NCBI GenBank assembly: GCA_964619305.1
Contig: CAZUDW010000001.1
Span: 14,356-78,355, forward strand
From: an uncultured Flavobacteriales bacterium
GTDB taxonomy: Bacteria; Bacteroidota; Bacteroidia; Flavobacteriales_H; CAZUDW01
DNA: 64,000 nt
Direction of reading: 5' to 3'
In this document: piece after piece, positions 5,652 to 64,000 of the stretch
Layout: each line of letters begins with the position of its first letter
Numbering within the stretch: position 1 is the first letter of the stretch
Made by a program: the position numbers and the translations under genes
Notes under the pieces: generated by a model
What the model was told of the DNA's origin: nothing
The model's database searches: none
What the model saw: the letters and a program-made list of their open reading frames with translations, nothing else

Positions 5652-6983
5652 TTACTGCACTCTTACGATTGTTTCTTCATTAATCCAGCAACCTACAGTA
5701 TAAGAATCCCCTTCATTCAAACCATTGAAAAAACAATCTGATGTTTTCGGAAACTGTGCAGTATATGCACTAATCTTTGAGTTGGCCACAGATGTTACGG
5801 ATGGATCAACAGCTTTGGCTTTTTTGTATTTATCAACTGCGGCCCAATATACAGATTTGCTTAGGCATTCCCCTTCACCGCAATCATTGACGCTGGCAGC
5901 ATAGGCATCTCCTATAACGATATATGCTTCACCATAATTCGGATTCACACCCAACGCTTTTTGCGCATATGTTCTCGATGAACTGTATTGCCCAATCTTG
6001 TTATAACATTTAGCTGCTTTGATATATGCATCAATCTTCATATCATTGTCATCGGCCTGCTCAGCAGCCTTTTTATAATATTCGATTGCTTTTGAACAAT
6101 TATTGTCTTTTACAAATAAATTCCCGATATTGACAGCAGATTCTGCAGATGGTTCCTTTTCGAATAATCTTTCCGCCACATTCTTATACAGTTTTTCTTC
6201 TACACATTTACTATAATTCAGTATTTTCATAATAAGTTTCATCTGATCCACATCATCCGGGTTGGATTCAAACTTGGGTGAAAAAATCCTCACTAAATCT
6301 TCACAACTGGCACAAGGACTAAACATTTTATCAAGATTTTCCTGCACAATTTTATACACTTTTACTTTCTGCTCTCTTTTCTGATTCTTAATATTGTAGG
6401 TAATAACAGCACTCATCTCGGGATAGGCAGCAATCATAGTTTCGCAAGTCAGTTCATTTTGTTTTATTAAGAGAAATATTGCCTGTCCATAAGAAGCAAT
6501 AGCTGCTGCTTCTGCTTTATTCCCCTGCAATTCAAATGATTTCTTCAGCACTTCATAAGCAGCTTTGATATCCTCAGTTTTTTTGCCCCGGTATTTCATC
6601 ATAATTGCACCTTTGCGACCAAGAACATACCCCTCCCTGCCAAAGTTTTCTATTCTCCTGTCATAAAGCATAAATAATGTATCTACATATTTTTCAGCTG
6701 TTGGTCCGTCTTTTTCATCTTCAATGAATTTTTCGTACATCTTACCACCGTTGATATAGAGAGACTCCTGGGACTTAGGACATACTTTACATGCTTTGCG
6801 CCAATAACCCAAAGCTTTTTGGTAATCTCCACTTTTAAAATAAGGATCTTTATAAACAGAGAGGTTCTTTATACATTCCACGCTATCAGCAGGTGTCGCT
6901 CCATACTTATTTCCCTGTGCGTTTGATGTAATTACTACAATCAAAAAAACTATTATTGTTCCGAATTCTTTTTTTAGCTCCAT
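5652..6983 (-). CDS. Secreted Cys-rich tetratricopeptide (TPR) repeat protein
   Basis: 443 aa with a signal peptide (…ITSNAQG). Repeated TPR-like A/Y/G patterns (ALGYWRKA, AIEYYKKAAE, AYIVIGDAYA) and numerous Cys pairs. Confidence 0.75.
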   Translation of the reverse strand: MELKKEFGTIIVFLIVVITSNAQGNKYGATPADSVECIKNLSVYKDPYFKSGDYQKALGYWRKACKVCPKSQESLYINGGKMYEKFIEDEKDGPTAEKYVDTLFMLYDRRIENFGREGYVLGRKGAIMMKYRGKKTEDIKAAYEVLKKSFELQGNKAEAAAIASYGQAIFLLIKQNELTCETMIAAYPEMSAVITYNIKNQKREQKVKVYKIVQENLDKMFSPCASCEDLVRIFSPKFESNPDDVDQMKLIMKILNYSKCVEEKLYKNVAERLFEKEPSAESAVNIGNLFVKDNNCSKAIEYYKKAAEQADDNDMKIDAYIKAAKCYNKIGQYSSSRTYAQKALGVNPNYGEAYIVIGDAYAASVNDCGEGECLSKSVYWAAVDKYKKAKAVDPSVTSVANSKISAYTAQFPKTSDCFFNGLNEGDSYTVGCWINEETIVRVQ

Positions 6984-10147: not shown

Positions 10148-10413
10148 AGCATAAAATCAAAAAGGAATTATGGAATTTTTTCTGAGAAATTGTATCTCGC
10201 GGTAGCAGAATCGGGACTCTCCACGAACCATGTTGTAGGGAACACGAATCACGTTGGACTACCCTGGATTTAAATTTCCCTGCCCTAAAGGACAGGGCTT
10301 TGAGAATAAATTTTAACCAGTCTAAGGGCCATCATTATACAAATCTATCAAGTTAAACATCCATATAATGAATTTATCACAATCTTTGCGTTAGGTTAGT
10401 TAATAATTGAGTT

Positions 10414-12555
10414 ATGTCTAAATATAAAGGGAGGAAAAAGAAGAAAATACTCAAAATAAAAAAACAGGCAACAGAACAAGATGCAGTTGGAACGAATGGT
10501 AATGTTGTTTCTTCTGATTCATCCTCTTACCTGAGAAAACCGAAAATATTGTTGTTTTTGCTCGGCTTTGTTCTTTTTGCTAACACCATACCTTTTGAAC
10601 ATGCACTAGATGACAAACTTGCAATTACACACAACCAATTTACTAAAAAAGGCATCAAAGGGATACCGGATATATGCTCAAACGATCTTTTGGTTGGTTT
10701 TTATGGTAAAAAGCGCAACCTCCTTGCCGGCAGCAGATATCGCCCACTTTCGTTGGTAACATTTGCTATTGAATGGAGTTTATTTGGCCCCTCACCGGGT
10801 ATCAAAGACCCTGTCCTGATCGAATCCAAACTTGCCACCCTTGCACATCTGAGCCATTTTATCAACTCTTTGCTGTATGGGCTGACGGGAATAGTCCTTT
10901 TCCTTGTACTTATGCAGCTTTTCCCTGATGAAAAAGATAAAGCATGGTACTTCTCCGTACCTTTTATTGCTTCAGTACTTTATTTAACGCACCCACTCCA
11001 CACGGAAGTTGTGGCTAACATTAAAAGCCGTGATGAGTTGATGAGTGTGTTGGGTGCTCTTGCAACATTGTTTTATACAATGAAATATCTTGCTACAAAA
11101 AACAATAAGAACCTGTGGTTTGCAGCTATTCTGTTTATACTCAGTTTGTTTGCAAAAGAAACAGCCATCACTTTCCTTGGAATTATCCCATTGGCGATCT
11201 ATTTTTTCACAAAACATTCTATCAAGGAAAATTTAATTGCATGCTTACCTCTTGGATTTGCTGCTATTATTTATGTAAGTATTCGTTATGCTGTGGTGGG
11301 TTCGTCACAATTACACCCTGTACCAGAATTACTTAACGATCCCTACCTTTATGCTACGACAAGTGAAAAAATCGCCACCATTTTTTACACTATGGGCATC
11401 TACCTCAAACTACTGCTGTTCCCCCACCCTTTGACCCATGATTACTATCCATGGCATCCGGTCTTGCATGGCAGTTTCACATGGGGACATTTCCCTTACT
11501 TGAACTGGTCATCACCTGCTGTAGTAATCTCCTTTCTCCTCTATTTGATACTCTTCATAACAGGAATTGCCGGTATACGCAAAAAGAAACTGCTTTCTTT
11601 TTGCATATTACAGTTTATGATCTCTTTTCTTTTATTTTCAAATCTCTTCTTCGCTATCGGCACTTTTATGAATGAACGATTTATGTACCTGCCTTCATTG
11701 GGTTATTGTCTCTTTCTTGGATGGATCATAGGGGTCAAACTGCCTAAGTTGAATAAATCCATAAAATTAGCAGGTGCTGTATTCTTAGTGCTTGCGCTGG
11801 CTTTTTCAATCAAAACAGTGACCCGAAATGCTGCATGGAGAAACGATTTTACCCTGGCCACTACAGATGTGTTGACATCTGTCAACAGCACTAAGGTGAA
11901 TATGTCAGCCGGGCTTGCTTTGGTACACCAGGTGGAAAACAACCCGGAAATTGCAGGGAAAACCAAAATACTTGACAAAGCAATTTCATACCTCAATCAT
12001 TCTATTCAGTTATACCCTAATTATATACAATCTCTGGTTATATTAGGAAGTGCCTATTTTTTAAAAGACAATTTTGAGAAAGCCTATATATATCTGAAAC
12101 AGGCGCTTAAAGTAAATTTCAAGTTCAATGATGCACGAAAGAATATGTACAGGCTGGGTTTGCAATGTGAAGAAAAAGGACGAAACACGCTTGCAGTTCA
12201 ATGTTACAACGAAGTGCTGAAATATTATCCAGAGGATACAGAAGTGCTGGGTGCTCTCGGCAAAGTATATGCCCGTGGAATGAACCAGCCTGATAAGGCT
12301 CTGCAATATCTGGAAAAAGCTTATGAATTGGATCCGAATAATACAGATATCATTCAGAAAATTGGTGTTGTCTATGCCACTTCGGGCAAAACATCCGAAG
12401 CAATAGAAATGTTTAAAAAAGGCCTTGCAATCAATTCAAACAATGCCCATATCATTATGAATATTGGGATTGCATATAAAAGCATCGGTGATGATTCACT
12501 GGGACAGCAGTATCTGGATAGGGCATTTCAAATTGATCCAAGTTTAAAACAATAA
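10414..12555 (+). CDS. TMTC-like multi-pass membrane protein (DUF1736, GT-C-like) with C-terminal TPR repeats
   Basis: 713 aa. About 11 TM segments with FxxDDxxxIxxN, YRPL and HPxHTEVV motifs typical of the TMTC/DUF1736 family, then at least 6 TPR repeats. Paralogous to the CDS at 44315..46276. Confidence 0.75.
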   Translation: MSKYKGRKKKKILKIKKQATEQDAVGTNGNVVSSDSSSYLRKPKILLFLLGFVLFANTIPFEHALDDKLAITHNQFTKKGIKGIPDICSNDLLVGFYGKKRNLLAGSRYRPLSLVTFAIEWSLFGPSPGIKDPVLIESKLATLAHLSHFINSLLYGLTGIVLFLVLMQLFPDEKDKAWYFSVPFIASVLYLTHPLHTEVVANIKSRDELMSVLGALATLFYTMKYLATKNNKNLWFAAILFILSLFAKETAITFLGIIPLAIYFFTKHSIKENLIACLPLGFAAIIYVSIRYAVVGSSQLHPVPELLNDPYLYATTSEKIATIFYTMGIYLKLLLFPHPLTHDYYPWHPVLHGSFTWGHFPYLNWSSPAVVISFLLYLILFITGIAGIRKKKLLSFCILQFMISFLLFSNLFFAIGTFMNERFMYLPSLGYCLFLGWIIGVKLPKLNKSIKLAGAVFLVLALAFSIKTVTRNAAWRNDFTLATTDVLTSVNSTKVNMSAGLALVHQVENNPEIAGKTKILDKAISYLNHSIQLYPNYIQSLVILGSAYFLKDNFEKAYIYLKQALKVNFKFNDARKNMYRLGLQCEEKGRNTLAVQCYNEVLKYYPEDTEVLGALGKVYARGMNQPDKALQYLEKAYELDPNNTDIIQKIGVVYATSGKTSEAIEMFKKGLAINSNNAHIIMNIGIAYKSIGDDSLGQQYLDRAFQIDPSLKQ

Positions 12556-27863: not shown

Positions 27864-28083
27864 AACATATATTTAATGATCATTCAAAGATATAAATAAA
27901 CTTTTTGAAATGCCTAATTATTACGTTACTCACCTTATGCAAGGATTGTGATAAATTCGCTACATGGATGTTTAACCTGATAGATTTGTATCATGATGGC
28001 TCCCCTTTTCTTTAGGGCAGGAACAAATATGCAAGGTATTGCGCAAAATATCCCCAGTACTTTTGAACCACCCAGAAGTCCGT

Positions 28084-47527: not shown

Positions 47528-47670
47528 AAGGGTTTTTGTGCTTAACGAAAGGATTTTTCAGGAAATATTTGGTTTTATAATCAGAAATACAGTAAATTTA
47601 TATAAATACATTCTATAAACAAAAACACAGATACTTGTCTCATTAATCTGCCGGCTTTTTAACATCCATA

Positions 47671-50214
47671 TTGAGGATTTATCATAATCTTTGCGCAAGG
47701 TCAGTGAATAAAAGAGTGATATTTAAACAAACACATCCATTTACTCTGAATAATATATGCTGGATTATTTGTATCCTTAGTGCCATCCTTATGCCAAAAA
47801 CAGTTGTGTCACAAAAAACCGTTATCACCGGGAAGGTATATGATAAAGAAACCGGAGAGCCTCTGTCATTTGTTAATGTCGTATTTAAAAACAGTAAAAT
47901 CGGATCAAGTACAGACTTAAACGGCAAATACCGTATTGAGACTTACTATGTTACAGATTCATTGATATGCTCATTTGTCGGGTACAAAAAACTTAGTAAG
48001 AAAGTGAGAAAAGATGTTACCCAGGTCATAGATTTTCCAATGGAACAAAGCAGCATAGAATTGCATGAATTTGTTGTAAAGGCCGATAAAAAAGAAGAGA
48101 ACCCGGCACACAAAATATTGAGAAGGGTAATTGCAAATAAAAAAGTGAATAATCGGGAAAAACTAAATGCATATCAATATGAAACTTACAATAAAATTGA
48201 ATTTGATTTAAATAATATTACAGAAGAATATAGAAATAAAAGAGTTTTCAAACCTTTTCAGTTTGTTTTCGATTATATTGATACAACAGAATCAAAAGAC
48301 TTTCTTCCATTATTTATGGTTGAGAATATTTCAGACTATTATTTCAGAAAAAACCCAAAATCACAAAAAGAGGTTATTAAAGCTACAAAAGTGTCAGGTG
48401 TGACAAACGAAAGCATCTCACAGTTTTTAGGTGACATGTATCAGAACATGAATATTTATAATAATTACGTGACTTTTTTTCATAAAAGTTTTATCAGTCC
48501 AATTGCTGATTTTGGTTTGTTCTCATACAGGTATTATTTGTTAGACAGTGCTTACCTTGGCAAAAATTGGTGCTATAAAATCCGATTTCTCCCCAAACGT
48601 AAACATGAGTTGACCTTTATGGGAGATATGTGGATCAATGATACCACTTATGCAATCAAACAAATCGAAACAACTATATCAGAAGATGCTAACATTAATT
48701 TCATAAATGAATTTTCCGTAGAACAACAGTATGAACAAGTTGAAAAAGAAGTATGGATGCTTACCAAAGAGAAATTGGTTGTAGATTTTACACTTACCGA
48801 TAATACTATAGGATTATATGGAAGGAAAACCACCTATTACAGGAATTTTATTATAAATGAACCAAAAGAAGATGAATTTTATTTTGGTGCCGAGAATATC
48901 ATAGTTAAAGATGGTGCAAATGATATGGATGATGCATACTGGGATTCTACAAGATATGAAGATCTTACAAAACAGGAGAAGGATATTTATGCAATGGTAG
49001 ATACAATTAAACAAGTACCGGCTTTCCGTACCTACTATGATCTTATTTTTATGTTTACAACAGGATATAAGGAATGGGGAAATTTTGAATTAGGACCATA
49101 TTTTACTGCATATAGTTTCAACCCGATAGAAGGAAACCGCTTTAGAATCGGAGGACGTACCAGCAATAAATTCAGTACACGGATTATGCCCGAATTATAT
49201 CTTGCTTACGGAACAAGAGATAATAAATTTAAGTATGGAGGTAATTTTATTTATATGCTATCAAAGAAACCAAGAATGACACTTGGTGCTTCTTATAAAA
49301 ACGACATAGAGCAACTTGGTCAAAGTTCCAATGCCTGGAGGCATGACAATATCATTGCATCTATTTTCAGAAGATCCCCAAATTATGAGCTCAACGGATT
49401 TGAGGAGTATAGTGGTTATTATGAGAAAGAGTGGTTTCAGGGGTTATCAAATATATTCACTTTTAAGCATCGTACTATTTGGCCGGTAGGAGACACCTTA
49501 GAATTTGTACATCAATCATCTGATGGCAGTTTAACAGAGATCAATGATATTACAACTACAGAACTCAGTTTGTACATGCGTTTTGCTTATAAAGAAAAAT
49601 ATGTTTTTTACGAATTTGAACGCTCCAGCCTAGGCACCAAATACCCGATAATTCAATTACAATATACACTTGGATTAAAAGACGTCTTTCAGAGTGATTA
49701 TGATTATCATCGTTTATTATTGAACATTAGCGATAAACTTCAATTGAGTCCATTAGGGTATAGCGAATTCTCTATTGAGGCGGGTAAGGTTTGGGGAAAC
49801 CTTCCATTCCCTTTACTGACTTTACATAATGGAAATGAAACATATTATTATGATCAAATGGCTTTCAATCTTATGAATTATTATGAATTTATCAGTGATG
49901 AATATGTCAGTTTCTCTTTAACACATAGATTCAATGGTTTATTTTTAAATAAAATTCCCTTATTACGCAAATTAAAGTGGAGAGAAGTGGTGAGCGGTAA
50001 AGCAGTGTATGGTCATCTGAATGAAAAGAGCCGGGATATCCTGGTCTTTCCAAAAGGTCTTACTGGTTTATCTAAACCATATATAGAAGCAGGGGTAGGG
50101 ATTGAAAATATTTTGAAGATTTTCAGGATAGATGCACTATGGAGATTAAGTTATCTTGACAATCCAAGGATAACCAAGTTCGGAATACGTACTATGTTTG
50201 TATTTCAATTCTGA
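47671..50214 (+). CDS. Carboxypeptidase-regulatory-like domain + DUF5686-type outer-membrane protein
   Basis: 847 aa (TTG start per the ORF track; in-frame GTG at 47716 is an alternative). Signal peptide, N-terminal CarboxypepD_reg-like motif ([19 protein letters not shown]), and a large C-terminal beta-rich domain ending in an aromatic residue. Confidence 0.65.
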
Positions 50215-54755: not shown

Positions 54756-56417
54756 ATGACCAAGTATATGAGATTAAATTATTTGACATTTATTATTATT
54801 GGGCATTTAATCTCATCAATAGCTGTTGCCCAAACATTCACCTCATCGAATTTGCCAATAGTTGTCATAAACACAAATAATGTACCTATTCCTGATGAAC
54901 CCAAAATCTCTGCTGATATGGGCATTATATACAATGGCCCCGGCAACAGGAATTATTTAACCGATCCTTTTAATGAATATAACGGGAAGATCGCTATTGA
55001 GAAAAGAGGATCTTCCTCGCAAATGTTTCCTAAAAAACAGTATGGGCTGGAAACACGGGACACACTTGGTATAAAAGTGAATGTATCAATATTCGGATGG
55101 CCTTCAGAACATGACTGGATATTATATGCTCCATATAGCGATAAAGCACTAATCAGAAATGTACTAGCATATAAACTGGGATGGGAAACGGGCCATTATG
55201 CACCTAGAACTAAATTATGTGAGTTGGTTCTCAACAATGAATATATGGGTGTTTATGTCTTTATGGAAAAAATTAAAATAGATGCCGGAAGGGTTGACAT
55301 CGCAAAACTTACTCACATTGATACTTCAGGATATGAACTCACAGGTGGATATTTATTAAAAATCGATAAACTGACCGGGGGAGGCAGTGGTTGGTATTCA
55401 CCTTTTGATCCTATTCCTGCAGCAAACAATCAAAAAATATATATTCAGTATCATGACCCTGATCCTGATTCATTATTGCCAGTTCAAAAATCCTATATTC
55501 GTGACTATATAACACAATATGAATCGGTTTTAAGCAGTCCAAATTATAATGATCAAACCACCGGATATCCGGCCTACATTAATATCTATTCATTTATAGA
55601 TTATTTAATTGTTAATGAAGTAAGTAAAAATGTAGATGGTTATCGCTTAAGTACCTTTTTTTATAAAGATAAATATACAAAGGATCCAAGAATTTACGTT
55701 GGCCCATTGTGGGATTTTAACCTTGCATTCGGAAATGCTAATTATTGCGGTGGAGGAAATGCCAACGATGGTTGGGCTTTGGACTTTAACACAGTTTGCA
55801 GTAATGATGGATGGCAGATACCTTTTTGGTGGGATCGTTTATTGCAGGATACAACGTTTCAGAACAAGCTAAAATGTAGATGGGAGGAACTTAGAGAAGG
55901 TCCGTTATATACAGATACTTTGTTGAATTGGATAGATAGCACCACCGTTTATTTAGATGAATCTCAGCAAAGGAATTTCATACGTTGGCCTATTTTAAGC
56001 ACTTATGTTTGGCCGAATAATTTTGTGGGCGGAAGCTATCAAGCTGAAATTGACTATATGAAAACCTGGATCAGTGATCGATTGAACTGGCTTGATGCCA
56101 ATATTCCCGGAACCTGTTATCCATGGACTTCCTCGAATGACAATGATTTACTTCTTTCACATATTTTGATTTATCCCAATCCCATCAGCGAAGAAAGTGT
56201 ATTGTTTTTTAATCTTGAACATACAGCCAAGCTAAACTTGAATGTTTATAATGTTTTCGGTCAAATGGTAAAAAGAATCAATGTTGGTCAATGTATTGAA
56301 GGCTCAAATTTTATTTCACTCAGAGAAATTTTCACCAGCATTGTTGCCGGAACTTATATTATACAATTAGAGTTAGCAGGTAAAAAGCCTCTGGTAATCC
56401 GAATCGTAAAGTTATAA
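54756..56417 (+). CDS. CotH kinase family protein with T9SS type-A C-terminal sorting domain
   Basis: 553 aa with a signal peptide. CotH-type motifs (IEKRGSSSQMFPKKQYGLE, YVFMEKIK). C-terminal ~80 aa (…LIYPNPISEESVLFFNL…GTYIIQLELAGKKPLVIRIVKL) matches the T9SS CTD. Confidence 0.7.
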   Translation: MTKYMRLNYLTFIIIGHLISSIAVAQTFTSSNLPIVVINTNNVPIPDEPKISADMGIIYNGPGNRNYLTDPFNEYNGKIAIEKRGSSSQMFPKKQYGLETRDTLGIKVNVSIFGWPSEHDWILYAPYSDKALIRNVLAYKLGWETGHYAPRTKLCELVLNNEYMGVYVFMEKIKIDAGRVDIAKLTHIDTSGYELTGGYLLKIDKLTGGGSGWYSPFDPIPAANNQKIYIQYHDPDPDSLLPVQKSYIRDYITQYESVLSSPNYNDQTTGYPAYINIYSFIDYLIVNEVSKNVDGYRLSTFFYKDKYTKDPRIYVGPLWDFNLAFGNANYCGGGNANDGWALDFNTVCSNDGWQIPFWWDRLLQDTTFQNKLKCRWEELREGPLYTDTLLNWIDSTTVYLDESQQRNFIRWPILSTYVWPNNFVGGSYQAEIDYMKTWISDRLNWLDANIPGTCYPWTSSNDNDLLLSHILIYPNPISEESVLFFNLEHTAKLNLNVYNVFGQMVKRINVGQCIEGSNFISLREIFTSIVAGTYIIQLELAGKKPLVIRIVKL

Positions 56418-56975
56418 TTATTGGATTTTATTCTCTGTAACTTCAGTTGCCTTCTTAGGTTGTAAAAATTTTGCAGCAGTCAGCATTCGTGAGGCAGCTT
56501 TTTCCGGCATTACTTCACCTGTTTCAATATCATGCAACTCATAATTGATATCATTTATTTTCACTATTGCGTAAAAGTGATAAAATGTTTTAGAACCGTC
56601 AGGTAATTGAGCATAATACAATATTGATGTTGAGTCTTCCTGCACAATTGCACATTTAAACAATAAATCTTCTTTCAAATCCGCTTTTTTTAGTTCAAGG
56701 TCACCACCTTCTAAAATAGCTATCTGGTAATAGTCTCCAACTTTTACCTCAGTTTCATTGGCATTATTGATACTTACTTGTGGTAACCCAACTGAAGAAT
56801 CAGGAACATATAACATTACATCCAATCCCCATTCACTTAAATCTAAAGGGTTATAAGTCTTTATTTCCTGGGGAATAATCAACTTGCTATTTCCATCCTC
56901 TGAATCATCATTTCCATTGTTACATGATAAAATAAACAGAGTAGGAAAGAAGAAAAGTGTTAAAAATTTTTTCAT
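56418..56975 (-). CDS. Hypothetical lipoprotein downstream of the A2M gene
   Basis: 185 aa. Lipobox FILSCNNG. No recognisable domain. Confidence 0.55.
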   Translation of the reverse strand: MKKFLTLFFFPTLFILSCNNGNDDSEDGNSKLIIPQEIKTYNPLDLSEWGLDVMLYVPDSSVGLPQVSINNANETEVKVGDYYQIAILEGGDLELKKADLKEDLLFKCAIVQEDSTSILYYAQLPDGSKTFYHFYAIVKINDINYELHDIETGEVMPEKAASRMLTAAKFLQPKKATEVTENKIQ

Positions 56976-57114
56976 TTCAAAATATTTTCACTGTTCACTG
57001 ATACACAACAAAGATATAACATCAATTTACATCAGCAAAACCACATTTTCCCCGACCTGTTCAGATGATACAATTCCCACTTCAAAAACAATTGAAGTTG
57101 ATAAATAAAGGACT

Positions 57115-60100
57115 CTATTCGCTTACTATTACTCTAATACCTTCCGAATGAGAAGTGAATTCTGGAGCATACATACACTGAATCGTGCTGATCCCGTTAG
57201 AAAAGTCCCCTTTATGCGTAACACGCAGTGAATATTCAAACACATAAGTTCCTTTAGGTAAATATTCTATGAAAAAATTTGTTGATGCATCTTTGGAGCT
57301 TTCATAATAGCCTAAACCATCCTGATATTTATATCTTGATAAAATATTCTCAGGTTCAAATCCTGCAGCTCTCATATCTTTCAAATGTACATATTCCATA
57401 TGCCGATCAGAGCGCAGAACAATCCGTACGGTTATTTTATCCCCTAGATGAAGTTTAGTATTAGTATTTATAGGTTTCAGCACTTTCCCTCCTTCAGTTA
57501 TCTTTTCTAAAAAAAGTTTCTTCTCAAGTTGTAATGGCGTTTTATGAGATGTGATTTTATCCAACTGTTCAAAATATTGCCAGTAAATCGCTCCCCATGC
57601 TATTCCTTTTCCCGGTTTTGTCACAACCACATTACCCATTTCAGGTTTGATTTCTGATTTACTCCAGGATGTTTTGAAATAACCCGTTCCGTTTTCCACT
57701 TTAATGTCATCCATTTTTTTAGGATCAATTTGCAAATTGCCTATTTTTATTTGAACAAGATTTTCCGTTTCAAGCCATTCAGTACCTGATATTAACAAAG
57801 CGTAACATGCATCGGCTGTAGCTCTGGTTGTCTTCCAATCCTGTGTCTGCTTTTGTTTTAAGAGCCAGATACGCATTTCTTCTACCGATTTCTTATCATC
57901 AGCAATCTCATTAAATGCTTCGATAAGTAAAGAATGCATCTCAATAGGAGCTTGATACCAATAATACCCCGGTACATTTTCTTTCCAGTACATGCCCATT
58001 TCTTCATTGAAAATAGCATTCTCTCTCAAAGAGTTGATAATATTGGTGGGTGTTGTTTTATCTCCAAACCTGTAGATGCCCAATGCAAGCATACCCTGCA
58101 TATAACGGCTGTTTTCAAGCCAATATTTTTTTGCCTGTTCCATGTAATAGTTAAACGCCTCTTTGTTTCTGCCATTTACTGATATATCTGTAAAGAAACT
58201 TCTTGCATATAAATACTGAATTTGCGTATATCCAAGATTATTGTCATTAAGATTCACCTTATTTCTTATCAGCCATTGATAATCTTCTCTTATCCTGTTA
58301 TCTAGATAAGGTATTGCCTTGCTAACCATATTCCATATACGATGACTCTCCCTTATTTCCTTTACCCCAAGTTGATCAAGGTGCCCAAAACCGGCAACGA
58401 TGTGTTGGGTAATATAACGACTTTCCGGCATACCTGGGAACCAGGGCCAGCCCCCATTTGAAACCTGTGCTTTTTCCAGTTTAAGCAATGCAGAACCCAA
58501 CTCATTACTCATCCTATTCAAATCAAACAGCAACCCTATCCTTTTTTTTCTCTCTGTCTCATTTTTTGCATCTAAAACCCAAGGTGTTTCCTCTAACATA
58601 AGTGATTTTAATTCCTGATTCTTCTCGAGATTAGAAAGTAAGGCTTCCGGGTTTTGTATTTTCCATGAATCAAAAACGTATTTGACTTTAGGATGAGAAT
58701 TGGCGATATGTGATGCAATACTGTTAGCATAAAAGCGTGAAAAAGTCTGTTCAGAACACTCATAAGGATATTCCATCAAATATGGCAATGCCTGAATTGC
58801 ATACCATGCCGGATTTGATGTGAATTCAAGTGTTAGTTTATGATTTTTTAAGGAAGAAGACTTCCCTGAACTCAGCAGCTTTCTGAATGTAAATGTTTTA
58901 GTCTCATTACCCCTGATTGGCATTGGCATAGACTCAGTTACAAGCATACGATTTGTTAATACAGGTATAGCAGATTCTTCACCATCGCTGAACTTACCCG
59001 ATTTAGCAACCACCTTATACACAACTGCCCCTATTCCTTCAGGTATTCTGATATTCCATTGAACTAAAGCACTTTGACCTTTTTTTGCAGTAAAAACCTG
59101 ATCTGATTTTTTTTCACTCATAAAGGATTTATCTATTGGCTTCATTGTAAACGCATCAAAAAAACTTAGCCTAGCATTGCCTTTCATCTCCTTTTCAGTC
59201 AGATTTGATATTTTGGCAGTGAAAGTCATTTGGTCATTTTCCCTGAAAAAGCGCGGAACATTGGGTGTGATCATCAGGTCTTTTTGAGTAACAGTTTCCT
59301 CATATAACATGGCTGATTTAAGATCTTTTGTATGTGCTAGCCCCATAAATTTCCAACGGGTTAGTGCTTCAGGAATAGTGAACTTTATCGTCACATTGCC
59401 ATCCTCATCTGTTGTAAGGTGGGGATAGAAAAATGCTGTTTCATTAAAATTACTCCTGGCTTTGATTATTCCGAGTTGATCTCTATTACCTGTTTGCCCC
59501 CCGCTATCCCTTTCGTCTTTAGTTTTATCTGCACCAGTTATTGTCTGAGTTTGCCGATTCGTATCCTTCTCCCCGGATTTATCCATTTTCTTCAGTTCTA
59601 TATTACCTCTACCTCTTGCTTCAGAAGCTGGCTTATTCACACTGCTTTCTCCTAATAATCCAACTTCTTCATCCTCATCTAATATCGCCCCCCCCTTTGC
59701 AGACTTTTTTGCATAACGATAGAGCCGATCACCATATCCATAAAAATCATATCCAAACCAATTGAGATAATCGTAATATCTCCCGGAACCACTGTAATAA
59801 TTATTCCAGCCTTCCGAATAAAGTGCAGATTGCCTGACGCCAAAAGCATTTCTTGATTGCCAGTAAAGCGATGAATAGAACGATTGAAAAACATTAAAAT
59901 TCCACATATTCGGTATAATTGCGTCAAGTGATGCATCATAAAGGGCAGCAAGCATTTCAGATGCTACTTTTTCACCTTTCGGACCTTTTATCTTTACTTT
60001 CCATTCTTCATCCTGGCCGGGATAGAGTTTATTGCGGAAAGTTTCAAACTCTATATCCAGCTTTTTATTGCTGTAAGGAACGATGATGATCTGTCCAAAA

Positions 60101-63100
60101 GTATATGGTCTGTTATTCTTAACCACCGCAAGATGGATTGCAAAATTTCCCCTGTACTCTTCCTTCACGGGGATGCTGATACGCCTCTGCTCCTCATTCA
60201 GATTGATCCATCGCCTCTGTATGATTTTGTTTTTCAGTTCAATCTCATATAATATATATACATCTTTATCTGCCGACCCAATCATAAACTCTACATTCTC
60301 TTCTGGTTCAGCTTCTTTTTTCAAAGGAACAAACCAAACAGCATCTCCAACAGGCATTTCCTTTTTTAATGAAGAATAAATCCTGATATATCTAATCATT
60401 TTAACCTCTTCTCCGTATTTATCTTTACAAGTTGCTTCCATTTTATAATAGCCAGGTTTCCATTCTGGCAATTTATGGAGGACAAGATCATCACTTTTTT
60501 TGGTATCAAAGGGCTTATCATACACTTTCAAGTCAGGTTTCCAGGTGCTGACATTATTTTCATTATCATATACATCATTTGGGAACTTAGCACTATGTTC
60601 AGCTTTAGTCATGCTGAATTTGTCCGGTCTTTCCCAGTCCCTTTTCCTGTATACTTGTTTGGGTGCTTCCAGATGATAAAAGATCAGTCTTCCGGATGCA
60701 GGCTCTTCCACACCCATTAAGTTGAATGTTTTTAACTTGAATGAATCCTGTCCGTTTTGTTCTATCTGATCAGGTACATTAACACTTATGTTTAAAGCAT
60801 TATAACCCACTACAACTACTTGTTGAGCACTATGAGTCTCCCCGTTAATGTCTGTAACATCTGCTGTTATGGTGTAAGTGTACTGAGGCTTATAACGTCT
60901 ATTAATACTTTTATCTGGAACGGCTTTAAAAGATATATTAAATGCTCCTTTCTCATTTGTAGTGATTACTCCATGTGCAATTTCCATCTGGGGAGAAGTA
61001 GGATACCAACCTCTCCAGTAGCCCCAGAAAGGAAATGATGCATTCCTTACAACATGATATCGAACTTTTGCTCCATCTACAACAGCACCTGCATATGCTA
61101 TTGCATTTCCCTCAACTTTCACGCTATCATCAAGCTTAAAGCTTCCGACTACCGGATTAAATTTAATTTCAAACTTTGGCCTTTTATATTCTTCTACCCT
61201 GAAATAAACGCTTCCATAGTTATTGGTTATATGCATTTGACCGTTAAGAGAAGATGTTGGGGCAGTAAAAGTACCGCTGAAGGTGCCATACTCATTTGTA
61301 GTAAGCTGGAGTTCTCCTACCTTTTGGTAGTTCACATCATACATTACCACCGTTGACTTATAATTCGTTTTAATACTGTGTTTCTCTCCATCTGTTTCTA
61401 TCACAATTCCCTTAAAATATATTATTTGACCAGGTCTGTAAATAGCTCGATCTGTAAAGAAATGCGTATTAATCCTTACTCTATCATAGGGTGAGTAACT
61501 ATATTGATAATAGGTGTCTTCTGTGTTGAGTTCATCATCTTCCTTTGTGAATTCTATATAAAAGTTGCGATAGTTCTTGGTAGCAGGAATTTTGAAATAC
61601 CCATCCTGGTTAGTGATGTACGTTCCGTATTTTTTCCAATCATACGCCCTAAGAGCATAGTTGTATTTTTCATAATACAATTTAGCCGTAACTCCTTCCA
61701 TGGGTTCTCCAGTTGTCCTGTTCAATGTTCTGACCTCATAAGTTCCATCATTCATATTCCTGATAAAATAACTTATGTCAGAGCTCCAGAATGATTTATA
61801 TGCAACTGCATTCCCCTTGTAACTAAATTCAGAATCGCTTCCTGCTAGCAGCACATAAAACCCTTTATCGGTTGCAGGATTTGCAAGCTCTATCTTATGT
61901 TGCTGAAAATCCCCTTCATTCTCAAGTTCTCCTTCCCATTCCTTCACAACTTTCAGGCTCCTTAGATATTCTATCCATTCATCATCATATTTTTTCAACC
62001 TGTTTTTTCTGAATGTTTCAAAATCAGCTTTGGCAATACGGTAATAGACTTTACCTATGTTGCGGTAGCTCAACAATGTAAGGAAAGGTTTGCCTGGCAC
62101 CTGCACATTTCCAAGATCGAATTTCATATCTTTGGTCTTTATCCTATCCACCAGGTATTTGCAGTTATCACTTCCATGTGAATCAGGGTATTCTTTGATT
62201 GCTTGTTTGCATATCTCGAGTGCCTTCTTCCTGTCCCACTTATGCTCTTCATTAAACGGTGGGTTGTATTTGTTGGCATTTTCATCATAGGCAGTAGCCA
62301 GATAATAAGCTGCATCTGCAGAGCCCGGATAATCTTTGTATTTTTCCATCAGGTGTTTAAGAGCATCCATATATAAACTGTCTTTTAGTTCTGATATCGA
62401 TTTGCTACTGGCAAACCCCAGACGTTTGATTTCGACATCTATCAGTGCTGCCGGATCCACATCATTGAGATGAAAAGCAGTGAGTTGTTGCAGTATCTCC
62501 GCAGCGTGATAAGACATGGACAAGCTATCTTTGCTGGAAAGTACTATTGATTCGAATTCATCTGCATCTCCGAAAAACCTGTTGTCTGCCACTTCATAAC
62601 GATTAGTAGGTTGATCCACCTCCGGCTCTGTGTTCATAAAAAAATCCACTGCACGATGTGCAAGAAAATCGTATAATGTAGGCCTGAAATTTCTGCTGTC
62701 TTCATATTTGATCAACACCTCATCAAAAGTACTGATGGGTGTATGCTGTAAACTGTCTGTACTTTGCAGTGAGAGATTGTAGTTTTTTACAACCATACTC
62801 AGCAGACTTTTCAGATCCCAGGTCCTGATGTCTTCTCTTTTAAAATTCACAGTCTGCGTACGGTCATAGAATTTCCAGCGGTTGTTCTCGAAATAACGCC
62901 AGTATATTTCAGCAGTGATAGAATATAGCACCTGCTTCACCGGGAACCGAGCATGATCCGCTTCCTGTTGTAATTCATATATGGAGTTAACATAATTATC
63001 TTCTTCCAAATAGGAATTGAGTTTGATACGATAAATTAGTGCCTTGACAATTTGTGCATTATTTCCATTAGTTTTTGATTTCTCCAGTATCCCGTTCACT

Positions 63101-63294
63101 ACCTCCAGGGCAGATTTTGTCAACCCCTTATTAAGCAAAGAATCCACTTTGATCCATTCTTTTTTATAAGTGCTCCCTTTGGGAAATATAAGCAGCGGTT
63201 TTTGGGGGTTGAAAGGATGGAGATTGATAGCAAAACCCGCTGAAAGAAGCAGAATGCACACAACTATGATTTGCAGAAAGTGTCTTTTTTTCAT
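57115..63294 (-). CDS. Alpha-2-macroglobulin family protein (giant, ~2060 aa) with variant thioester-site motif
   Basis: The ORF extends to 63357. The start is placed at MKKRHFLQIIVVCILLL (signal peptide). Multiple MG-like beta-sandwich segments; a thioester-domain start ALPYLMEYPYECSEQTFSR (CxEQ); and a C-terminal receptor-binding-like domain. Confidence 0.8.
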   Translation of the reverse strand: MKKRHFLQIIVVCILLLSAGFAINLHPFNPQKPLLIFPKGSTYKKEWIKVDSLLNKGLTKSALEVVNGILEKSKTNGNNAQIVKALIYRIKLNSYLEEDNYVNSIYELQQEADHARFPVKQVLYSITAEIYWRYFENNRWKFYDRTQTVNFKREDIRTWDLKSLLSMVVKNYNLSLQSTDSLQHTPISTFDEVLIKYEDSRNFRPTLYDFLAHRAVDFFMNTEPEVDQPTNRYEVADNRFFGDADEFESIVLSSKDSLSMSYHAAEILQQLTAFHLNDVDPAALIDVEIKRLGFASSKSISELKDSLYMDALKHLMEKYKDYPGSADAAYYLATAYDENANKYNPPFNEEHKWDRKKALEICKQAIKEYPDSHGSDNCKYLVDRIKTKDMKFDLGNVQVPGKPFLTLLSYRNIGKVYYRIAKADFETFRKNRLKKYDDEWIEYLRSLKVVKEWEGELENEGDFQQHKIELANPATDKGFYVLLAGSDSEFSYKGNAVAYKSFWSSDISYFIRNMNDGTYEVRTLNRTTGEPMEGVTAKLYYEKYNYALRAYDWKKYGTYITNQDGYFKIPATKNYRNFYIEFTKEDDELNTEDTYYQYSYSPYDRVRINTHFFTDRAIYRPGQIIYFKGIVIETDGEKHSIKTNYKSTVVMYDVNYQKVGELQLTTNEYGTFSGTFTAPTSSLNGQMHITNNYGSVYFRVEEYKRPKFEIKFNPVVGSFKLDDSVKVEGNAIAYAGAVVDGAKVRYHVVRNASFPFWGYWRGWYPTSPQMEIAHGVITTNEKGAFNISFKAVPDKSINRRYKPQYTYTITADVTDINGETHSAQQVVVVGYNALNISVNVPDQIEQNGQDSFKLKTFNLMGVEEPASGRLIFYHLEAPKQVYRKRDWERPDKFSMTKAEHSAKFPNDVYDNENNVSTWKPDLKVYDKPFDTKKSDDLVLHKLPEWKPGYYKMEATCKDKYGEEVKMIRYIRIYSSLKKEMPVGDAVWFVPLKKEAEPEENVEFMIGSADKDVYILYEIELKNKIIQRRWINLNEEQRRISIPVKEEYRGNFAIHLAVVKNNRPYTFGQIIIVPYSNKKLDIEFETFRNKLYPGQDEEWKVKIKGPKGEKVASEMLAALYDASLDAIIPNMWNFNVFQSFYSSLYWQSRNAFGVRQSALYSEGWNNYYSGSGRYYDYLNWFGYDFYGYGDRLYRYAKKSAKGGAILDEDEEVGLLGESSVNKPASEARGRGNIELKKMDKSGEKDTNRQTQTITGADKTKDERDSGGQTGNRDQLGIIKARSNFNETAFFYPHLTTDEDGNVTIKFTIPEALTRWKFMGLAHTKDLKSAMLYEETVTQKDLMITPNVPRFFRENDQMTFTAKISNLTEKEMKGNARLSFFDAFTMKPIDKSFMSEKKSDQVFTAKKGQSALVQWNIRIPEGIGAVVYKVVAKSGKFSDGEESAIPVLTNRMLVTESMPMPIRGNETKTFTFRKLLSSGKSSSLKNHKLTLEFTSNPAWYAIQALPYLMEYPYECSEQTFSRFYANSIASHIANSHPKVKYVFDSWKIQNPEALLSNLEKNQELKSLMLEETPWVLDAKNETERKKRIGLLFDLNRMSNELGSALLKLEKAQVSNGGWPWFPGMPESRYITQHIVAGFGHLDQLGVKEIRESHRIWNMVSKAIPYLDNRIREDYQWLIRNKVNLNDNNLGYTQIQYLYARSFFTDISVNGRNKEAFNYYMEQAKKYWLENSRYMQGMLALGIYRFGDKTTPTNIINSLRENAIFNEEMGMYWKENVPGYYWYQAPIEMHSLLIEAFNEIADDKKSVEEMRIWLLKQKQTQDWKTTRATADACYALLISGTEWLETENLVQIKIGNLQIDPKKMDDIKVENGTGYFKTSWSKSEIKPEMGNVVVTKPGKGIAWGAIYWQYFEQLDKITSHKTPLQLEKKLFLEKITEGGKVLKPINTNTKLHLGDKITVRIVLRSDRHMEYVHLKDMRAAGFEPENILSRYKYQDGLGYYESSKDASTNFFIEYLPKGTYVFEYSLRVTHKGDFSNGISTIQCMYAPEFTSHSEGIRVIVSE

Positions 63295-63564
63295 ATTGAG
63301 ATAAATTTGATTGAATGATGCAAGCTGATACAGTATTCCATAAAACAAAATAATCAACAGGCATACAAATACTTATGCAAAGATGAAGCATCACGAAAAA
63401 AGTTGCAAATCCAAATTGTGTTCATGATATACAATGGATGGAATTAGTATATTCTCGGAAACCTTAGTGCCTCTATTATAAAACGGATATTTCCATAAAA
63501 TCAGTTCCTGAATCAAGGTAATAATAAACTTCTTTTATAATTGTAATATTTTTTTTGGTATGTA

Positions 63565-63750
63565 CTCTATTCGCTTACAGCTACTCTAATACCTTCCGAA
63601 TAAGATGTGAATTCTGGAACATAACATCTCTGAATCGTGATGATCCCGTTTGAGAAGTTGCTTTTATGCGTCATAGGTAGCGAATTTTCAATAAAGAAAT
63701 TTGATGAAGCATCTTTGGTGCTTTCATAATAACCTAAACCATCCTGATAA
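63565..63750 (-). pseudogene. Decayed duplicate of the last ~60 codons of the A2M gene (gene fragment)
   Basis: ~85% nucleotide identity to 57113-57330, same orientation. Keeps the frame and the same TAG stop, with an in-frame 30-nt deletion (orig …IEYLPKGTYVFEYSLRVTHKGDFSNG… vs copy …IENSLPMTHKSNFSNG…). Upstream in-frame stops and no start codon. Confidence 0.6.
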
Positions 63751-63931
63751 GATGTATCACAGGTTTTTGCGAGCGAAGTAGCATGTGAAGAAATAAAAGA
63801 TTACTTATTGAAAGTTTAAGCTATTTGCTGTTGTTTTCTTATATTATCTCTCCAACAGGTGAATCTACGGCTTAAGCAAGGATAAATACCTCTATTTTAG
63901 CAAATAAGATTTCTGCTTGTTCCGCCAACCG

Positions 63932-64000
63932 GCCTGGCTCTCGTAATCAACAAAGAATATCTTCAAATCTGCCTGGCTTTCATAATCGACAAAAAAGACT
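63932..64000. repeat. Imperfect direct repeat (2 copies, ~39-bp period) truncated by window end
   Basis: gcctggctctcgtaatcaacaaagaatat vs gcctggctttcataatcgacaaaaaagact, about 80-85% identity. Confidence 0.3.

Follow-up and report, generated by a model that had tools for sequence, protein, structure and literature searches.

The subject of this analysis is a stretch of 64,000 nucleotides, hereafter the window, from an uncultured Flavobacteriales bacterium (GenBank assembly GCA_964619305.1, contig CAZUDW010000001.1, positions 14,356 to 78,355 of the forward strand). It carries a large gene of the alpha-2-macroglobulin (A2M) family and, upstream of the start of that gene, a short copy of the gene's own 3' end. 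The list of open reading frames (ORFs) contains a single very long ORF on the minus strand at 57115..63357, which amounts to 2080 aa when counted from a TTG codon. An earlier note on this DNA had given this figure as the length of the gene. It holds for the maximal ORF, from TTG 63357, but the probable start is the ATG at 63294, because the alignment with homologs begins at residues 1-10 and these homologs carry comparable signal peptides at their N-termini. The intact gene, identified by its Pfam domains and homologs, would thus extend over 57115..63294 (minus strand) and encode 2059 aa; read from this first ATG, the protein opens with MKKRHFLQIIVVCILLLSAG.

The last 71 codons of the gene together with the stop codon and 3 nt beyond it (57112..57327, minus strand) form the source-type copy, here called copy A, which corresponds to the end of the C-terminal macroglobulin (MG) domain (bMG10). 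The decayed 3'-end copy, copy B or the relic, lies at 63564..63752 on the same strand; homology covers 63564-63749, the codon 63750-63752 falls outside it and the TAG stop is at 63567-63569. The repeat resolves into two blocks in the same orientation, 57112-57239/63564-63691 (82% identity) and 57261-57327/63683-63749 (88%). When aligned by codon, the copies agree at 153 of 186 nt (82%) and differ by one in-frame gap of 30 nt (10 codons), close to the ~190 nt and ~85% reported in the earlier note, and the match is recovered by blastn (E 5e-38) and tblastn (E 2e-18). It is the longest repeat within the 64-kb window; the two copies share no exact stretch of more than 20 nt. A total of 216 nt of the gene end, including the stop codon and 3 nt past it, is represented in copy B, which is reduced to 186 nt because of the 30-nt deletion. 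The deletion took out codons 2009-2018 (IEYLPKGTYV, 57241-57270), leaving a junction at 63683..63693 (minus strand) whose placement is ambiguous by a few nt. The 5' boundary of the homology is sharp (63749/63750) and the other end lies 3 nt past the stop codon.

Copy B translates as ...SYQDGLGYYESTKDASSNFFIENSLPMTHKSNFSNGIITIQRCYVPEFTSYSEGIRVAVSE* and retains the reading frame and the TAG stop, with 61 of 2059 codons left. In-frame stops are found 5' of the point where the homology begins. In all these respects the codon alignment and translation agree with what the earlier note had described. Its statement that the copy has no start codon is correct for the 5' end only, since a residual ORF of 35 codons can be read from an internal ATG in the relic's frame (MTHKSNF...AVSE, 63567..63674, minus strand), for which there is no evidence of expression.

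We took advantage of two further members of the A2M protein cluster (P0121 and P0122), which led to two conspecific contigs, L162 from an ENA assembly and L163 from a JGI metagenome (3300002231). Identity to the window over 9.6-10.6 kb is 99.95% for L162 and 99.83% for L163, and both contain the relic. In the relic region L162 shows no difference and L163 a single one-base insertion, which is probably a sequencing error since this contig has several other one-base indels as well as N bases. The 18% divergence of the two copies and the occurrence of the same structure in three independent assemblies rule out an assembly artifact. L162 also reaches 2089 nt past window position 64000, where it encodes a 112-aa DUF6150 protein followed by a divergent GatB_N/GAD-domain gene; no A2M-like ORF was found in these 2089 nt, and no gene is called over the relic in L162. 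Copy B is therefore not the end of an intact, separate paralog, the outcome that the earlier note had named as fatal to its view of the segment as a remnant.

The two copies are much closer to each other than to the rest of the family. At third codon positions, copies A and B are 75% identical, as opposed to 33-54% between either copy and 12 other homologs. They also share traits that are atypical of the family, namely S2022 (P in 29 of 31 homologs) and the ...VSE* ending. This combination of high third-position identity and lineage-specific residues places the origin of copy B in the A2M gene of its own lineage. The changes that separate the copies are markedly one-sided. Among the 15 amino-acid differences, the family residue is kept in the gene and lost in copy B in 13 cases, with one case in reverse and one tie. 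Six of the 13 losses concern columns invariant in 31 homologs (T2005, F2019, Y2021, G2029, M2041 and A2043) and others near-invariant ones, such as C2040 and V2025, while the 30-nt deletion removed the invariant K2014, G2015, Y2017 and V2018. Copy B is thus decaying, under relaxed selection relative to the functional copy.

Nei-Gojobori estimates for the two copies, from a small sample of 60 codons, are a synonymous divergence (dS) of 0.37, a nonsynonymous divergence (dN) of 0.15 and a dN/dS of 0.39. A ratio of ~0.5 is expected when selection has constrained one copy ever since the split while the other evolved neutrally; the proximity of the observed value to it gives no sign that copy B was long a functional paralog and fits a segment that has been free of constraint over most of its time as a separate copy. 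The three assemblies diverge by <0.2%, which makes the split itself old by comparison; set against the separation from the nearest relative (61% protein identity), it is young. As for the open frame of copy B, it is not evidence of selection, since 61 codons stay free of stops in 25-31% of simulations with 20-25 random substitutions.

No sign of a present role of the relic was found. A search of the window against Rfam returned two tRNAs only and nothing at the relic, and RNA folding of 63540-63890 gave a z-score of -1.46, which is not significant. Matches resembling sigma-70 promoters and terminators occur at the relic at the frequency expected from shuffled sequences, and promoter-like matches in the leader that precedes the A2M gene do not exceed this expectation either. 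The Bacteroidetes promoter pattern TTTG-N17-23-TAnnTTTG is absent from the relic region; a pattern of this type was found at 57009-57039, in front of the gene downstream of A2M. Judging from the sequence, we infer that the relic does nothing today.

In order to place the structure in a wider context, we took 160 heterospecific loci, half of them (80) from species-representative genomes and the other 80 from metagenomes (39-58% protein identity), and searched their flanks (±10 kb) with the A2M protein of the window. None of the 160 harbors a second full-length A2M gene or tandem paralog, and only one, L066 from a Bacteroidales metagenome-assembled genome (MAG; JBBSDC010000032.1), contains an extra piece of A2M. 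This piece is 108 nt long and 84% identical, comprises the last 35 codons with the stop and lies downstream of an intact A2M homolog. The region L066:15976-17404 contains, in order, the A2M homolog, three 130-nt tandem repeats (each with the last ~28 nt of the coding sequence), hairpins resembling repetitive extragenic palindromes (REP; GGTGCGGATTACAAATCCGCACC), a transposase, 18-nt tandem repeats and the 108-nt piece. The transposase is a 183-aa IS200-like Y1 enzyme (RAYT-like, PF01797 E 1.9e-7). L066 thus offers a likewise short 3'-end copy near an intact A2M gene, which, unlike that of the window, is situated downstream of the gene and amid repeats and a transposase. No comparable repeats or transposase were found near the relic when the window was searched. 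We regard L066 as an independent, mobile-element-linked relic and a different situation. Another candidate, a split A2M with a 74%-identical C-terminal part in L032 (CAYRAD010000052.1, Vicingus sp. MAG), turned out to be a scaffolding artifact around a run of N (6386-6515) with ~40 nt duplicated on both sides.

The immediate surroundings of the relic consist of unique sequence. A spacer (63753..63891, minus strand) without further homology separates it from the stop codon of the DUF6150 gene, the true upstream neighbor, whose 3' end (63892..64000, minus strand) is inside the window; the gene runs off the window's end and is complete in L162 (1860-2198; PF19647 E 2.8e-21). On the other side, a unique leader of 269 nt (63295..63563, minus strand) leads to the A2M start and presumably holds the A2M promoter. 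Sensitive blastn of spacer and leader against the window and 163 loci revealed no other homology to mark rearrangement endpoints, and the GC content is uniform along the locus. Downstream of A2M lies a gene for a putative lipoprotein of 185 aa (56418..56975, minus strand) without a Pfam family. It is the only A2M neighbor conserved in the nearest relatives, where it is found directly downstream (L001, L081 and L032) or a few kb further (L083 and L002), and the downstream order of this gene followed by an SBP_bac_5 gene is common to the nearest relatives. In contrast, the upstream neighbors (DUF6150, GatB-like) are common to none of the 160 related loci. Since synteny is shared downstream and not upstream, a rearrangement breakpoint upstream of A2M is plausible.

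We consider it likely that the segment 63564-63749 is a non-functional relic, copied from the final 71 codons of the lineage's own A2M gene, that is decaying without selection and was left behind by a tandem duplication followed by a deletion. We infer the order and kind of these rearrangements as follows. A ~6.45-kb unit consisting of the leader and the A2M gene, and ending 3 nt past the stop codon, would have been duplicated head to tail; the junction at the 3' end of the relic (...GAATAGAGT|ACATACC...) has the form expected of a head-to-tail tandem junction. A deletion would then have stripped the upstream copy of its leader and ~6 kb of its coding region, possibly with some flanking DNA, leaving the downstream gene as the single intact A2M copy. 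The 30-nt deletion and the point substitutions would have arisen later in the remnant. It is also possible that most of an upstream copy was lost to DNA coming in on the DUF6150 side. Every variant of the history leads to the same conclusion, namely that the segment is a neutral scar. The earlier note had read the locus as one that expands and contracts. This is not supported, since one duplication, one large deletion and one 30-nt deletion suffice, the structure is common to the three assemblies and none of the 160 loci has a tandem paralog.

Several observations weigh against duplication and deletion followed by neutral decay, and some of them favor other explanations. An intermediate with two tandem genes is seen in no available genome, so the two-step history is a reconstruction, and a direct one-step partial duplication of just the 216-nt end is possible. 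At column 2000, copy B keeps the family-invariant T and the gene has S; with the site ancestral in B (T2000) and derived in A, copy B goes back to an older version of the gene than the present-day one. Frame and stop codon are preserved in copy B, though not significantly so (P ~0.25-0.31). Furthermore, survival to a dS of ~0.37 with only one small deletion is fairly long for a bacterial pseudogene fragment and leaves some room for a secondary role. The old split and the retained T2000 would also be expected if the relic were what remains of a long-lived, functional tandem pair that diverged under selection and whose upstream member was deleted only recently, and the homology does stop 3 nt past the stop codon, as if only coding sequence had been conserved. 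We nevertheless find such a paralog improbable. Selection should have kept most of the conserved residues, yet 13 of the 15 replacements are on copy B, at invariant or near-invariant columns. Tandem paralogs are missing from all 160 related loci, and in a set of 5.8 billion clusters the protein that comes next in similarity is only 61% identical, with no surviving close paralog known.

The contrast between upstream and downstream synteny could instead be read as the outcome of horizontal transfer, in which imprecise recombination (homology-facilitated illegitimate recombination) displaced the 3' end of an older resident allele when a diverged A2M allele or adjoining DNA came in; the independent relic in L066, which adjoins an inserted cluster of REP sequences and an IS200-like transposase, lends this some color. 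However, the geometry is wrong, since a 3' remnant upstream of a complete gene still needs tandem copies at some point. The window has no mobile-element gene or repeat near the relic, GC content is uniform, and the lineage-specific residues and high third-position identity shared by the copies argue against a displaced allele, which we hold to be very unlikely. Even less probable, to our judgment, is a relic co-opted as A2M promoter or 5' region, as the 3' untranslated region of the DUF6150 gene, as a 35-aa peptide or as a direct repeat for excision of A2M. Its persistence to dS ~0.37 with frame and stop kept, its sameness in the three assemblies (the one-base insertion of L163 aside) and the position of copies A and B, which bracket the whole gene as direct repeats, would suit such a role. 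Against this, RNA structure and promoter or terminator signals do not rise above expectation, Rfam offers no match, survival of the open frame is not significant and the replacements destroy conserved residues of the domain. An exact match of at most 20 nt makes a poor substrate for homologous recombination, and assemblies that are >99.8% identical are uninformative on constraint. We give similarly little credence to the idea that the bracketing repeats permit an occasional recombinational loss or regain of A2M in the population, or that the 35-codon ORF or the DNA of the relic was co-opted to regulate the gene, a reading under which the second relic in L066 would hint at a recurrent site of rearrangement at the 3' end of this gene family.

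A relic produced by duplication, deletion and decay is in line with what is seen for bacterial gene relics in general: the copy is truncated, lies next to a functional gene and points the same way, has no 5' start, carries an internal deletion, has lost conserved residues and shows substitutions consistent with neutrality. It is rather old (dS ~0.37) for its shortness and by chance retains an open frame with the original stop; nothing essential differs. For annotation purposes it is a pseudogene fragment, which should neither be merged with the gene nor taken for one, and it documents a single past duplication and deletion in an uncultured Flavobacteriales-like bacterium. In short, the locus holds an ordinary pseudogene fragment beside an ordinary member of the A2M family.

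The gene itself provides the more useful by-product, as it belongs to a large Bacteroidota family of A2M proteins (~2000-2100 aa) with a conserved CXEQ motif, a C-terminal architecture resembling that of E. coli A2M (ECAM) and an uncharacterized helical domain of ~345 aa. This gap in knowledge is one at the level of the family and not a discovery from the window. The literature that we searched holds no experimental study of any member of the clade. Homologs are numerous (n = 1193 at E<=1e-50), and a domain search of the kind proposed in the earlier note assigns MG2 (2.9e-13), A2M_BRD (1.2e-6), A2M (8e-20) and bMG10 (3.2e-32) to the protein. Genome and metagenome collections contain no genome of the same genus, and the ancestral state of the locus is beyond reconstruction since the best relatives are only 54-61% identical to the A2M protein. 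Exact-protein look-ups of this A2M read from three different starts, one of them that of the database representative P0001, gave no match. At its N-terminus the protein has a hydrophobic, signal-like helix (MKKRHFLQIIVVCILLLSAGFA), where by-eye inspection shows a Cys following V-V and no canonical lipobox. In the public gene call (P0001/P0121, 2010 aa) the protein begins at residue 50 of the 2059-aa reading. The 49 codons omitted (63148-63294, minus strand) include the signal peptide found in all close homologs, so the public call probably puts the start codon 49 codons downstream of the true one.

Based on motif, domains and models, the protein is best described as a putative periplasmic, thioester-type (CXEQ) alpha-2-macroglobulin-like protease trap, typical of the family. 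A hypervariable, charged, low-complexity segment (~residues 1185-1280; 59455..59742, minus strand) separates the bait-region domain from the A2M (MG7) domain. All along the segment the family consensus reads 'x', and its placement relative to the Pfam A2M_BRD and A2M matches is as expected, which makes it the candidate bait region. The thioester-type motif CSEQ (C1513-Q1516; 58747..58758, minus strand) is found in the context YPYECSEQT, of which YPYECSEQ covers 58747-58770. The earlier note had pointed out this form in place of GCGEQ or CLEQ. CSEQ is indeed present but is no anomaly: CXEQ is the hallmark of the thioester (PMC5764988, PMC4498604), and among 117 close homologs with the motif 63 have CAEQ, 50 CSEQ and 4 CTEQ, CAEQ being the predominant form among the fetched loci. 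C1513, E1515 and Q1516 are invariant across 32 aligned family homologs and only the x position varies. In one minority subclade (L028, L030, L096, L098, L072, L076 and L080) YPYECxEQ is replaced, for example by KYRSSDNV, and the thioester Cys and Gln are lost, while the flanking motifs NPAWYAxQALP and FxxFYANS are still present.

The corresponding context in E. coli YfhM is YPYGCLEQT, and CLEQ is the thioester motif of ECAM (PMC5764988, PMC4498604). Aligned to YfhM with hhalign, neither the family profile nor its C-terminal part reached the thioester domain, so the equivalence of CSEQ and CLEQ rests on the common YPYxCxEQT context and on the fold model. In the AlphaFold2 (AF2) models of A2M, beta-sandwich domains are visible. 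The model of the last 770 aa (mean predicted local distance difference test score, pLDDT, 76) consists of beta-domains, a helical domain and C-terminal beta-domains. Its helical domain spans approximately residues 207-546 of this part, with C224-S-E-Q227 at the N-terminal end of helix H225-244, among the first helices of the domain. Foldseek matched this C-terminal model to Salmonella A2M (4U48, E 6.6e-26) and to ECAM from MG7 to the C-terminus (4ZIU, E 1.2e-25), and also to complement C3 and C5 and insect TEP1 (E range 1e-26 to 1e-22); the comparison yields scores only. Motif and fold thus mark the protein as a thioester-type A2M, in which a Cys-Gln bond may form.

With type I A2M proteins (E. 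coli ECAM/YfhM and Salmonella SaA2M; PDB 4U48, 4ZIU and 5A42) the protein shares the chain of MG domains, bait-region domain, MG7, helical thioester domain and C-terminal MG domain, as well as the local CXEQ context. At the sequence level the relationship is very remote: phmmer with the single sequence found no PDB match, a profile of 32 sequences reaches YfhM at E 0.003 and hhalign covers residues 476-1115 only, with a probability of 80%, while the fold match by Foldseek is strong. The protein is also ~400 aa longer, shows no canonical lipobox on inspection by eye and has no adjacent pbpC. The absence of pbpC had been remarked upon in the earlier note, and tblastn with E. coli PbpC indeed found no PbpC-like gene in the window. 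As such a gene lies near only 1 of 163 family loci, however, the missing partner is the norm in this family. Even among type I proteins, pbpC adjacency is frequent rather than obligatory (PMC4498604, PMC5764988). Several database sources label the homologs 'YfaS (alpha-2-macroglobulin family)', after a type II protein. Type II proteins (P. aeruginosa MagD and E. coli YfaS) are likewise large periplasmic MG-domain proteins with a bait region, but have no CXEQ and belong to a six-gene mag operon (PMC5764988). In contrast, the gene in the window has CSEQ, and its neighbors, encoding DUF6150, an unclassified 185-aa protein and a CotH protein, form no multi-gene mag-like operon.

The size of this A2M, called giant in the earlier note, is owed mainly to an all-helical N-terminal domain of ~345 aa (residues ~43-386; 62137-63168, minus strand), modeled at a pLDDT mostly >90. 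The domain is kept across the aligned family homologs, where it comes ahead of the first of the beta-sandwich domains. Pfam offers no match for it, and a Foldseek search against the PDB with a model of the N-terminal 620 aa returned generic beta-sandwich matches only (e.g. transglutaminase, C3) and none for the helical domain.

Additional features were observed around the locus. Between the 185-aa gene and the SBP_bac_5 gene, the window contains a gene (54756-56417, plus strand) for a CotH-domain protein that carries a C-terminal sorting domain for type IX secretion. In the nearest relative, L001, the two flanking genes are adjacent, so the CotH gene looks like a lineage-specific insertion. 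On the upstream side, ~0.2-2.1 kb past position 64000, L162:2-1708 (minus strand) encodes an end-truncated protein of 569 aa in which the GatB_N catalytic domain is interrupted by a GAD domain, an arrangement that we take to be that of archaeal GatE and not of bacterial GatB. Finally, a non-coding element of ~75 nt with the core GTTAAACATCCATATAnnGAATTTATCACAATCTTTGCGTAAGGT occurs three times in the window (10328-10422 and 47658-47727 on the plus strand, 27928-28000 on the minus strand; 79-88% identical) and has no Rfam family. Each occurrence lies directly 5' of a co-oriented gene, encoding a tetratricopeptide repeat (TPR) protein, a DUF5686/CarboxypepD_reg protein and a PorP/SprF type IX secretion protein, respectively, and the element may serve as a promoter or leader common to the genes of a regulon.

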